From: Verrucomicrobia bacterium UBA1183
GTDB taxonomy: Bacteria; Verrucomicrobiota; Verrucomicrobiia; Opitutales; UBA9783
Length of the DNA stretch: 64,000 bases
NCBI GenBank assembly: GCA_002309885.1
Contig: DBYP01000018.1
Location: 27,602-91,601, forward strand
Direction: 5' to 3'
In this document: in pieces, positions 9,001 to 12,000 of the stretch
How the letters are laid out: every line of letters starts with the position of its first letter
Numbering within the stretch: position 1 is the stretch's first letter
Program-made: the position numbers

Positions 9001-12000
9001 TCAAACAGTTAGAGGTCGTATTTGAATGCCCGTGTTGCAAAATTCTCGAAAAATATCAACGTGCGCTCGATCAAAAGAAACAGTTTGAAGCGATGTATCG
9101 GCAATCGCTGCAGAAAGATAGCTCCAACGTCGTACAGAAGCAACAAGCTATCGATGGTTTAAATTGCGTGCAGTTCTGCCTGCAAACCATTGATATGAAT
9201 ACGTTGCGGAGTTTGGGGAAGTCGTACTTTACACAAAACAAAGTCGATGTCCTTTGGGCTGCCGGCGAAAATGACGGTAAAGGGTTCGTGCTTGTCTTCT
9301 GTTCCGACAAGGCCATAGCGCAACACAAAGAAGCTAACGCTTTAATTCAAGGCTTTTTGAATCCGTTAGGCGCCAATGGTGGTGGGAAAACCGATTTTGC
9401 AACCGGCGGCATAAAAGACGTGGCTGTACTGAAAACCCATTGGGGAAAGTTGTCGTTCTAATGAAGATGAATGTTATCGAATCTTTGGGTGAGGTAGCTC
9501 GGGCACATCCGAAAACCATCGGATTGAAGGATCCCTATCGGAACTTCGGCAGCATCCTCAATTACCACAATAAGACCTTTCAACAGATGGATCATGAAGT
9601 TGATTTGTGGGCGACGTACTTGATGACTCAAGGCTTTTCTAAAGGGCAAAAAGCGCTTCTGATGCTGCCACCCGGCGAAGATTTGCTGATAACCGTATTC
9701 GCTATGCTACGCCTAGGCACGATACCCGTCGTTATCGATCCCGGGATGGGACTCAAGAACTTCATTCATTGCGCCAAAAGGACACAACCGGATCTATTCT
9801 TGGGCTGTCCTAAAGCACGTATTCTTTACTATTTGCTGCAACCGATTATTCGTTTCAAGAAGGCAATTTTTTTATCACAACGACTGAAAAAAACACTGTA
9901 CAAAAAGGATTTCGCGTGCCATCTGCAGCAGGAAGATCGTAACAACGATACCGCAGCGGTACTGTTTACTTCGGGATCAACCGGTTATCCCAAAGGCGCC
10001 ATTTATACCTACGAAGAATTTAATCAGCAGATTGAAGTGTTGCGAGAAACCTTTTCGATACAACCCGGCGAAGTCGATATACCGCTGCTTCCGGTTTTTT
10101 CCCTTTACAATCCGGCGTTGGGGATGACCACCGTTGTTCCCGAAATGAATCCGTCGCACCCGGGTGCTTTGAATCCCAAAAAGATTGTGGAGGCAATTTT
10201 AACGAACCATGTCACCAACAGCTTTGGATCACCTCGTTTGTGGACAAAAATCGCGGACTATTGCGAGAAAAACGATATCACATTGCCTTCCATAAAGCGA
10301 ATATTTTTAGCCGGTGCTCCAGTTCATCCGCTGTTGCTAAAACGTGTTCAAGCACTTATCCCCCACGGTGAGTCTTTTACGCCTTATGGAGCTACCGAAG
10401 CTTTGCCGATTGCCTATATTTCTGCCAAAGAAGTCATAGAGAACACATACGCTTTAACCTTGCAAGGCAAAGGCACTTGCGTTGGACATGCACTTCCTGG
10501 CGTCCAGATCCGCATTATTCCCATTAAAGACGAAGCGCTTGCGCAACTTCCAGAAGAGCTGCCAACGGGTGAAGTTGGCGAAATTGCCGTATGTGCACCT
10601 TATATCAGCAAAGCCTATTTGAATGATCCTTCTGCAACAGCTAAAGCCAAAATTTCAAACAGCGGCAACATTTGGCATCGCATGGGTGATTTGGGCTACA
10701 AAGACGAACAAGGACATCTCTGGTTCTGCGGACGGAAAGCCGAGCGTGTTATTTGCGAAGACCGCACATTCTATACCGATTGCTGTGAGGCGGTATTCAA
10801 CGCTCATAAGGCTGTGGCTCGATCGGCGCTGATCGCTTTCGAAAAAGAAGGGCGAAACGTTCCCACGATCGTTATTGAACTTAATCGGAAATTGTCGACA
10901 TTTCAGAAGAAAAATTTACTGCAAGAACTTCGCGAACTGGCACAAACCGTAGCAACCACACAAGAAATTTCACATTTTTGTTTCTATAAAAAATTTCCTG
11001 TAGATGTCCGGCATAACGCTAAAATACACCGATTAACCTTGACGCGTTATTTCAAAAAACACCCTTCGGAAATCATAGAAATTTAATAAGGGCACTTTTT
11101 GAAAAAAGTTTCCCTTAGACCCTCAAAAACTTTTCTTATTTTGCAACAATGTTGCAAAATAAGAAAAGTTTTAAGGGAGATTGAGGGATTTTTTACAAAA
11201 AATCCCTCAAAAAGACTGAACCTTCGTTTTTGTGGTACAAAAAGTGCTGCACAAATGTTTGTATGGCAGAAGTTTCATTCAATACACCTCAAGTTCAGAT
11301 GGGTAGCGGATATATGGATTCCGCAAAGGAAGTTTCTGAAACGACGAAAGGGCAATTTGGAGCGCAAGAGGTAACCGTAAGTCAAGACGTCGACCCCACC
11401 ACGAAAGACGATGAATGTGCGTCTGTGTTTCAAGCGGAAAAGAACACCAAAAAAGCTCAGAAGAAAAAGGACAAAGAAGGCAAAACAAAACTCAATGCTC
11501 TTCAAAAAACCAAAGAAAATCAAAATATTAATGAACAAGACCAGCGCGGTCGTAGGATAAGCAAAGCTACGGAAAAAAGGCTGGCATCTCTCGGCCAATT
11601 TACCTCCAAAGATCTTTCGGGAACTATCCAGGAACGCTCTCAAAAGCTCTTTGATGGTAATGAAAAAAATTATCAAGAATGCTTTGAGGAATTAGATCTG
11701 GCGGTTCGCCAAAAAACGCTCACACCCAATAAGATTAGTCAAGCAACCCAACGTTTCGATGATGTCGCAGAGCAACATAATGCACTGCAAATCACTATTG
11801 AAGTTTGGGAGAGAAAGCTCTCCAATTTAAAGAATTTGAAACAGGGGGTGTCTTCTGAGAAAGACATTGATGCGCAAACAAAACAACAAGATCAAGAAGA
11901 AATTCAGCAACAAATTCAAGAACTTGAAAATGCTTTAGACGGCATCAAAAAATCTCAAGGGGACTTGATGAACCTCAAGGAAGCACGAGACCATATCATA

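Follow-up and report, generated by a model that had tools for sequence, protein, structure and literature searches.

The 64,000-nt stretch of DNA described here (the window; contig DBYP01000018.1 of Verrucomicrobia bacterium UBA1183) carries many copies of a hairpin-rich repeat in the spaces between its genes. Whichever enzyme moves it, this repeat is very probably a mobile, non-coding intergenic element. More specifically, we favour with moderate confidence its identification as a small non-coding mobile element, that is, a bacterial MITE (miniature inverted-repeat transposable element), mobilised in trans by a DDE transposase of the IS630/Tc1-mariner type. The type of transposase is the less secure half of this proposal, as only one clean insertion site is available. 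The repeat has several of the generic properties of a MITE: it is small and non-coding, it is dispersed in many copies (nine strong copies of 90-204 nt in 64 kb), it shows a target-site duplication at one site (site F, below) and it is polymorphic in presence and absence between relatives. Coding is made improbable by stop codons in all frames and, as was originally argued, by insertions and deletions between copies.

The original prediction described a unit of 125-145 bp with nine good copies in the window, and all nine were recovered independently, far above chance and in non-coding DNA. Repeat finding placed three families, D1 (8 copies), D2 and D5 (9 copies each), at these loci, and an nhmmer search with a profile of the nine copies returned E-values of 1e-37 to 2e-20. 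A covariance model (R1), run over the whole window without filters, scored the nine copies at 35-142 bits and three pieces that had been called degraded (46408-46466, 54568-54598 and 57761-57850) at 22-23.5 bits (E = 0.016-0.03); the latter are weak matches, yet detectable. Two further sites had been listed as possible relics, of which that at 61715-61750 is marginal (15 bits, E = 0.5, centre only) and that at 21653-21678 appeared in no search. The pattern of the central palindrome was found at 8 sites (16 strand matches) in the window against 0.01 expected, and that of the first hairpin (H1) at 7 sites against 0 expected. With R1, the plus orientation of the element outscored its reverse by 15-50 bits in every copy, so this near-palindromic unit has a polarity. 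The nine copies add up to 1,285 nt, which is 2.0% of the window.

The order of modules in the archetype copy at 11088-11213 is as described: H1 (TAAGGGCACTTTTTGAAAAAAGTTTCCCTTA), a left arm (CCCTCAAAAAC), a 7-3-7 palindrome at the centre (TTGCAACAATGTTGCAA, lying within a longer perfect stem), a right arm (GTTTTAAGGGAG) and a further hairpin, H3 (TTGAGGGATTTTTTACAAAAAATCCCTCAA). The motif CCCTCAAAA is indeed present twice in the unit, and the fold of this copy does have a single long hairpin at its centre (-57.5 kcal/mol, z = -9.4). The folds of the copies are very stable on either strand and consist of three hairpins side by side or of one long hairpin with H1 paired to H3; their z-scores are -4.1 to -11.9 for all but the partly deleted copy 13094 (z = -0.7). 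An alignment of 19 sequences from the window and other loci (A2) has the consensus ATAAGGGAACTTTTTGAAAAAAGTTTCCCTTAAACCCTCAAAAAC-n-TTATTTTGCAACAnTGTTGCAAAATnAnTAAAAGTTTTAAGGGAGTTTGAGGGATTTTTTACAAAAAATCTCTCAAAA; in the core consensus, six half-sites TTTRAGGGA stand in the order > < < (centre) > > <. An optional GC hairpin of 23 nt (TGGGGYGCAGGGYCTYTGCCCTG) occupies one of two alternative positions: it lies to the right of the centre in three window copies and to the left of the centre, inverted, in three copies from elsewhere (L096, L098 and L093).

It had been proposed that the unit contains mutually exclusive pairings, which could be read as a riboswitch-like device. This reading gained no support, as covariation is near background and mismatches have no strand bias. 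When A2 was evaluated with four specified helices, 91.8% of cells were paired compared with 91.5% after shuffling, and 67 of 500 shuffles reached the observed value. There were 8 double-change cells against 3.7 expected, most of which represent a single T-A to C-G change in H3 that is common to three copies. Mismatches are of both kinds (mostly A:C in H1 and the arms, mostly G:T in H3), and copies occur in both orientations relative to flanking genes. Based on these results, the palindromy appears to be a property of the DNA, and we found no evidence for a strand-specific functional RNA.

The unit as first drawn is only the core of the element. In its complete form the element reads TA/GAGTGWGTCTAC...GTAGACRCRCTC/TA (slashes mark the ends of inserted DNA), is 202-218 nt long and encloses the 125-145 nt core between a left arm of about 33-45 nt, starting at GAGTGWGTCTAC, and a right arm of about 25-30 nt, ending at GTAGACRCRCTC. 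The true terminal inverted repeats (TIRs) and the TA flanks lie 30-45 nt outside the limits originally set, and H1 and H3, which had been taken for TIR-like unit ends, are internal hairpins. TIRs of 12-14 nt were found in window copies 1601 and 37992, in L098 and on the right side of L097, which has an outer arm on that side only. Copy 1601 (1570..1771, minus strand, 202 nt; core 1599-1730, R1 score 125 bits) has the TIRs GAGTGTGTCTAC / GTAGACACGTCC and reads TA/GAGTGTGTCTACAGGAGATAAAAAG...GTAGACACGTCC/TA, with the TA dinucleotides at 1568-1569 and 1772-1773; its outer inverted repeat is at 1574-1593 / 1748-1767, and the arm profiles match it at E = 8e-11. Copy 37992 (37958..38161, plus strand, 204 nt; core 37989-38138, 113 bits) has the TIRs GAGTGAGTCTAC / AGACTCTGCC, a duplicated TA at 37956-37957 and 38162-38163, an inverted repeat at 37955-37967 / 38152-38164 and a GC module at 38068-38090. 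The ends of the L098 element (about 218 nt) are TA/GAGTATGTCTAC...ATAGACGCACTC/TA. TA is found on both sides of all three complete long copies. Repeat finding reported the outer inverted repeats independently, and profiles of the two outer arms matched the long copies at E = 1e-4 to 8e-11 and, weakly, the relics at 46.4 kb and 54.5 kb.

The same outer arms were identified in a relative, L107 (about 19700-19890, minus strand), where they surround a single H1/H3-type hairpin in an element that begins at the stop codon of an NYN/YacP gene. This single-hairpin element may be the ancestral form of the family. A nesting of the core within another MITE was considered and rejected: the L107 element is the only core-less match, and its hairpin of the same type speaks for common descent. 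Because the L107 arms surround a single hairpin, the triple-hairpin interior looks like an elaboration in one lineage rather than a nested insertion.

Orthologous sites were compared on syntenic contigs of relatives, about 169 kb in total, which were reached through homologues of AlaRS, GpsA and XseA. Through AlaRS, these are L102 and its duplicate L103 (91% identity to the window), L104 (87%; from the same metagenome sample as L108 and L111), L105 (81%) and L107 (71%). Through GpsA and XseA, they are L108 and L111 (79% and 80%, respectively; overlapping ranges of one scaffold), L110 (GpsA, 82%), L112 (XseA, 81%) and L113 (XseA, 78%). Six sites (A, B, C, F, G and H) were compared across contigs L102-L113. 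Site F (copy 37992) is the spacer from RadC to FabZ, which is 52 nt long in L108 and L110 and 246 nt long in the window. The empty allele of L108 and L110 reads CC-TA-GAATAATGG; the filled allele of the window reads CC-TA-, followed by an insertion of 204 nt that begins with GAGTGAGTCTACGG and ends with ACAGACTCTGCC, followed by -TA-GAATAATGG. On its left side the insertion exceeds the R1 core match by 31 nt, and on its right side by 23 nt. In this clean pair of empty and filled sites, the TA inside CTAG is duplicated, and it is this duplication that points to transposition of the IS630/Tc1-mariner type. Both ISY100 and IS630 target TA and duplicate these 2 bp, CTAG being the preferred site of IS630 (PMC2170065). 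The same site favours an IS630/Tc1-mariner-type DDE transposase over the RAYT or IS200/IS605-type mobiliser that was originally suggested.

Site A (copy 11088) is empty in five relatives (L102, L103, L104, L105 and L107), so that copy 11088 is a clean and clearly recent insertion. After the AMP-binding gene, the relatives read TTTAA/GTCTTCGTTTTTGTGG (L102) and TTTAG/GAACCCGTTTTTGTGG (L104), and the window reads TTTAA/TAAGGG...CCCTCAAAAAGACT/GAACCTTCGTTTTTGTGG. At site B (copy 13094), the convergent SycN/UPF0102 junction, an element is present in the window and L102, and L104 and L105 have a gap of 6-9 nt. The window and L104 both carry an element at site C (copy 16270), the trxB/metG spacer, that of L104 being centre-less; L102 and L105 are empty there. 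At site G (copy 40467), L108 and L109 have overlapping stop codons of gpsA and the kinase gene (TTTTAGGCG), L110 has a solo H1 only, and the two stop codons of the window are 157 nt apart; the inserted block of the window (40452-40617) lies between two TA dinucleotides. At site H (copy 60305), the xseA/tsaE junction, L113 carries a solo H1, and L111 and L112 lack the element. At the empty sites, the convergent genes of the relatives are only 0-9 nt apart. The copy upstream of alaS (6571) has left a remnant in L102 and is present, inverted, in L065; this copy is older. With R1, 9 strong copies are found in the 64-kb window (one per 7 kb), compared with 4 in the approximately 169 kb of relatives (one per approximately 42 kb), and the family is about six times denser in the window strain than in its relatives. 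The pattern of presence and absence at orthologous sites, together with the density in relatives, indicates that most window copies are dispensable, polymorphic insertions that have recently multiplied in this strain.

Beside the site B copy in L102, the region between the SycN stop and the element (16130-16240) contains a solo H3-type hairpin and then a 60-nt AT-rich palindrome (CTTATAATGTTAAATAT...ATATTTAACATAAG). The latter is unrelated and may be a second small palindromic element.

The mechanism that we propose has several parts. The element inserts at TA, which at the one clean site lies within a CTAG and is duplicated. It would be moved in trans by a DDE transposase of the IS630/Tc1-mariner type, whose gene would lie elsewhere in the genome. 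The central palindrome and the RAGGGA half-sites would serve as protein-binding or structure-forming parts rather than as an RNA device. The termini read TA/G...C/TA and would at once close any open reading frame (ORF) that enters in the right frame, which would account for the tolerance of insertions at gene ends. If the hairpins have a terminator or mRNA-stabilising effect, it would be a by-product.

Several observations weigh against a TA-targeting MITE of this type. The long form has a single clean empty/filled pair, and in copy 37992 only about 7 of 12 positions agree between the right and the left TIR. Outer TIRs are missing from seven of the nine strong copies of the window and from most of those in metagenomes; profile searches for outer arms beside short copies lent no support to such arms in 40467 or 16270. 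At site A, the clean pair for the short form, there is no convincing target duplication, and the block at site G carries 25 + 15 nt of unrelated sequence. No transposase was identified among the roughly 43 window ORFs scanned with Pfam (about 15 others were not scanned directly, some of them being covered by precomputed annotations) or in the annotations of the relatives (approximately 169 kb), so that the autonomous transposase partner is hypothetical. Lastly, a distant relative of the element was found at 480-686 of L005 (contig JAZUSM010000061, binned as Oscillospiraceae; 51 bits). It has the same three-hairpin layout and the AAAAGTTTTAGGGAGTTTGAGGGAG junction between right arm and H3, with other hairpin sequences, and it is flanked not by a simple TA but by an 8-bp direct repeat, AATTTAGC (472-479 and 687-694). 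About 17 of 29 copies read TA/AGGGAAC...CTCAAAnn/TA, although in such AT-rich DNA this is only suggestive.

A rather unlikely alternative is a REP/BIME/REPIN-like system, in which mosaics of REP-type hairpins are spread by a single-copy HUH (Y1) RAYT or IS200/IS605-like enzyme without target duplication. It would suit the short form, which is quasi-palindromic with three hairpins or one long hairpin, sits at gene 3' ends and fills convergent gaps, is a mosaic with an invertible inner segment and occasional solo H1 hairpins, and has a clean site without an obvious target-site duplication. It does not suit the long copies, with their classical TIRs and TA duplication. Furthermore, neither H1 (TAAGGGAAC...GTTTCCCTTA) nor H3 (TTGAGGGAT...ATCCCTCAA) has a GTAG/CGTC tag, which is the mark of the two REP superfamilies, REPs being imperfect palindromes of 20-40 nt that bear it at one end (PMC3733652). 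There is no conserved target of 4-5 nt beside either end (a tetra- or pentanucleotide next to the left end was sought specifically as an IS200/IS605-type target, and that candidate was rejected), and no Y1 transposase domain appeared in those ORFs of the window and relatives that were scanned. Few solo hairpins occur in the window: only 2 of 18 hairpin matches lie outside composites, and one of these (46409) lies inside a long-form relic.

It is similarly doubtful, in our estimation, that the core is an autonomous structured module that spreads without target duplication, is co-opted in this lineage as the usual bidirectional operon end of a genome with few canonical terminators and uses the long TIR form as only one vehicle, with the L005 element extending it to a cross-phylum class constrained by structure. 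Candidate spreaders of such a module would be an enzyme that recognises hairpins or single-stranded DNA, or a host protein that binds RAGGGA.

Insertions sit in or next to stop codons and, as a result, gene ends have been rewritten. An rsmE-like gene (1751-2515) reads 21 nt into the left arm of copy 1601 (1751-1771) and gains seven element-encoded codons, ending ...LECVYRR-stop. RadC (37956-37963) keeps its ending ...FLE-stop because the terminal GAGTGA of the element mimics the original GAATAA, and the histidine kinase (40610-40618) gains ...KP-stop from the inserted DNA. One could suppose that the host selects the structure as a bidirectional terminator, mRNA 3'-end protector or attenuator in a terminator-poor genome, with spread being secondary. 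We regard this as quite unlikely. In its favour, eight of the nine copies are at the 3' ends of genes, and elements take up four of the seven convergent junctions practically from end to end. Very stable folds form on both strands, the window shows no enrichment of terminator-like sites (50 against about 64 expected), and in three copies a T-run follows a canonical GC hairpin. However, the same junctions lack the element in close relatives, where they measure 0-9 nt, so the element is dispensable and not required there. H1, H3 and the centre have A/T-rich stems with no T-run after them on either strand and do not qualify as intrinsic terminators. The terminator scan was passed only by the GC modules of 6571 and 37992, that of 13094 failing, and a selected terminator role for this module was rejected, as its orientation to neighbouring genes is inconsistent: copy 6571 occupies a divergent promoter region, and the copy of L093, which follows a tRNA, has the wrong sense. 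Covariation, as noted, is at background. The hairpins may nevertheless matter for transcript ends.

The sole convincing canonical intrinsic terminator of the window is at 46522-46549 (minus strand; an 11-bp stem with 5 GC pairs, then a T-run). It lies downstream of a CesT-like gene and adjoins the decayed long-form relic described below.

Spread without any transposase, by template-switching, gene conversion and illegitimate recombination between AT-rich hairpins at gene ends, is in our opinion also improbable. The internal variants are what such processes might produce. They include solo H1 hairpins (L110, L113 and window 46409), a centre-less copy (L104), partial copies (13094 and 26720) and a flipped GC module, and they fit recombination or slippage between direct motifs (the 3' half of H1 with the 3' half of H3) and inverted motifs (left and right arm). 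The central stem of copy 11088 has a perfect 18-bp extension, as if from quasipalindrome correction, the orthologous alaS-upstream copy is inverted in L065, and variable extra bases flank the insertions. On the other hand, these processes do not explain the same 125-200 nt sequence at many unlinked sites that are otherwise empty, nor the conserved outer TIRs with TA flanks in different genomes. They serve better as a source of variants than of new copies, and we accordingly assign them this part within the MITE model, where variants would arise from the element's own direct and inverted motifs.

The weakest alternative, namely that the copies are genes for small structured RNAs or form a riboswitch-like device in which TTTTGAGGG has two alternative partners, draws on the alternative folds and the duplicated CCCTCAAAA and is very improbable given the lack of an Rfam match, of a conserved promoter within the unit, of strand-specific G:U pairs and of covariation above that of shuffles, the occurrence of copies in both orientations to genes and their dispensability between close relatives.

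Database searches agree with the earlier suggestion that the repeat belongs to no Rfam family. Only two tRNAs in the window reach the Rfam threshold, an E-value scan of a full-length copy gave nothing relevant, and the best sub-threshold match on a copy was to rli22 (25 bits against a threshold of 80). A full-length copy had no blastn match in plasmid and phage collections. In viral contigs, the patterns of the right-arm/H3 and H1/left-arm junctions had no match, and the left-arm TIR pattern had only chance matches inside phage genes. A promoter role was examined (TTGCAA as a -35 sequence, or a Bacteroidetes-type TAnnTTTG) and rejected: there is no conserved partner at the right spacing, and promoter scans are unenriched. 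Outside the copies, TTTTTGTGGTAY recurs at 11232-11243 and about 38190-38201, upstream of a gene that starts at 11266 and of fabZ, respectively. Both occurrences are mostly preserved in the nearest relatives and degenerate in more distant ones, and the motif may be a promoter or leader element.

Copies also exist outside the window: in three Opitutales metagenome-assembled genomes (MAGs), in ten metagenome contigs and in the syntenic relatives. A scan of a genome collection with the central palindrome yielded the three MAG loci with full-length relatives (L019, L013 and L065) and otherwise mostly single Bacteroidota sites and unrelated repeat families. Scanning metagenomes with the right-arm/H3 junction yielded the ten further contigs, whose GC contents of 35-46% indicate that several organisms carry the family. 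By exact matches of its proteins, the window belongs to a metagenome assembly from bovine rumen. Its host is an uncultured verrucomicrobium of Opitutales/Puniceicoccales type, as the closest homologues of AlaRS, GpsA and XseA are metagenome proteins and the nearest named ones (40-61% identical) are from Puniceicoccales, Opitutaceae, Ruficoccus, Pelagicoccus and Cerasicoccus. The window ORFs scanned are housekeeping genes (among them alaS, metG, rho, clpXP, tig, lpxA, murJ, fab genes and a bat operon).

Two observations were made on these other loci. First, the left flanks of L097, L100 and L095 have in common a gene 3' end directly before the element, with different sequence after it; this could reflect recombination or rearrangement at the repeat, or assembly chimeras. 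Second, the TTTTGCAAC-N3-GTTGCAAAA hairpin is also found in other multi-hairpin repeat families (L018, L023 at 3066-3374, L040 and L055; L024, L035, L073 and L089; L077; and L005 at 1226-1500 and 6136-6333). These belong to a Victivallales MAG (including a tandem array with a spacing of 143-145 nt), a Clostridia MAG and Oscillospiraceae MAGs. A 9-bp stem has only about 18 bits of information and is thus no evidence that the families are related; the sharing may be due to chance.

The remaining copies of the window are short or partial. The archetype, a core-only copy with all five modules (11085..11215, plus strand; R1 score 142 bits), begins directly after the TAA stop of the AMP-binding-enzyme gene (9440-11086). 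Upstream of alaS (6774-9461), the divergent region holds the copy at 6568..6715 (plus strand; 97 bits), which has the GC hairpin and T-run module at 6647-6669. The partly deleted copy at 13092..13205 (plus strand; 35 bits) consists of H1, left arm, half of the centre, a GC module (13158-13180) and the 3' half of H3, and fills the gap between the convergent SycN-like (12714-13082) and UPF0102 (13214-13642) genes. The short copy at 16267..16395 (plus strand; 119 bits) lies between the metG stop (16402) and the start of a trxB-like gene (16201), antisense to both genes. A truncated copy at 26717..26805 (minus strand; nhmmer E = 1e-22, R1 score 65 bits) consists of H1, left arm, centre and a short tail, and fills the gap between the convergent lpxA (25926-26714) and murJ (26821-28329) genes; its R1 match spans 26679-26805, of which only about 26717-26805 is real similarity. 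Two further short copies fill convergent gaps: that at 40464..40595 (minus strand; 132 bits) lies between gpsA (39466-40452) and the histidine-kinase gene (40610-41767), and that at 60302..60437 (plus strand; 113 bits), with a diverged right arm and H3, lies between xseA (58971-60299) and tsaE (60435-60848). The latter copy is identical in a contig of the same strain, L090.

Three relics accompany these copies. The decayed long-form relic at 46371..46510 (plus strand) has an intact H1 (46408-46438), a degenerate centre and TIR-like ends (TGTCTACG ... GTAGATGTGCTCTA); it scores 23.5 bits with R1, with an nhmmer E-value of 5e-8 for H1 and arm and weak arm-profile matches. The relic at 54535..54602 (plus strand; 22 bits), which adjoins a tRNA gene (54359-54429), consists of a left-TIR-like sequence (TGGAGTGCGTCTAT, 54535-54548) and then an H3-type hairpin (54568-54598). 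The degraded relic at 57759..57853 (minus strand; 22 bits, E = 0.03), with two H3-like hairpin remnants, is located downstream of an epimerase gene (56704-57744).

Two features of the neighbouring genes may be mentioned. Type III secretion-associated genes are present in this core-chromosome region: genes for SycN/CesT-type chaperones lie at 12714-13082 (plus strand) and 46770-47204 (minus strand) of the window, and such genes are found in the relatives at 15480-16129 of L102, 796-1593 of L107 and 5251-6909 of L108. TyeA adjoins SycN in all relatives, and flagellin and FliD genes are nearby in relatives. In addition, the 33 codons at 57984-58085 (plus strand) encode what may be a tiny basic ribosomal protein of the bS22 type.

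What makes the family noteworthy is its two-tier organisation, with a TIR-bearing long form and an abundant TIR-less core, and its strain-specific burst at gene ends. Having expanded recently in one strain, it marks genome dynamics at the strain level, and it is a plausible cause of assembly breaks in rumen metagenomes. The replacement of convergent junctions of 0-9 nt by hairpin-filled spacers of 110-160 nt constitutes a natural experiment on gene ends and read-through. For masking or annotating these repeats, and in a search for the cognate transposase, the covariance model and the TIR consensus are of practical use.

Judging by Rfam, by records of plasmids and phages and by a limited search of the literature, this MITE family of Verrucomicrobiota has not been described before. 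TA-flanked bacterial MITEs with TIRs, target-site duplications and size classes are well established, namely RUP, Correia/NEMIS and ERIC (PMC2229807). The pneumococcal RUP element, which is associated with IS630-Spn1, is likewise small, non-coding, intergenic and multicopy, has TIRs and takes TA as its target; its mobilisation in trans is attributed to an IS630-family transposase, that of IS630-Spn1 (PMC2229807). RUP is 107 bp long, with 9-bp TIRs that match a known insertion sequence in the same genome, whereas the present element is about 205 nt long and no cognate insertion sequence was seen in the window. It also differs in its triple-hairpin interior, in the lack of TIRs from most copies, in the absence of sequence similarity and in the phylum of its host. 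The Correia/NEMIS elements of Neisseria, like those described here, have TA termini with target duplication and two size classes that differ by an internal module; their copies are adjacent to genes and their sites are filled or empty between strains (PMC2229807). Their central protein-binding-type motif (for IHF) and the long hairpins formed by their transcripts (PMC2229807) can be likened to the present element. Correia copies, however, all keep TIRs of 24-26 bp, while here copies most commonly consist of the TIR-less core; there is no relation in sequence, and the core described here is built with three independent hairpins and six RAGGGA half-sites.

Similarly, the REP/BIME/REPIN elements of Enterobacteria and Pseudomonas are extragenic palindromes at gene 3' ends and between convergent genes, and form mosaics in alternating orientation at high density (here, about 2% of the window). 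In contrast to them, the present family has no GTAG/CGTC tag, longer units, TA duplication and TIRs in its long copies, and no RAYT in the scanned ORFs. The 127-bp enterobacterial ERIC/IRU and the pneumococcal BOX elements are likewise imperfect palindromes of about 125 bp, modular (boxA-B-C in BOX compared with H1-centre-H3 here) and with internal indel variants. Their sequences and hosts are unrelated to those described here, ERIC TIRs are only about 7 bp long, and the variable number of boxB in BOX has no counterpart seen here. The family thus represents a kind already known, that of the TA-flanked hairpin MITEs with size variants (RUP, Correia and ERIC), rather than a new category of biology. 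In working terms, we describe it as a TA-targeting MITE of the RUP/Correia kind that, because its sequence is unrelated and its phylum different, stands beside those families and not within them.

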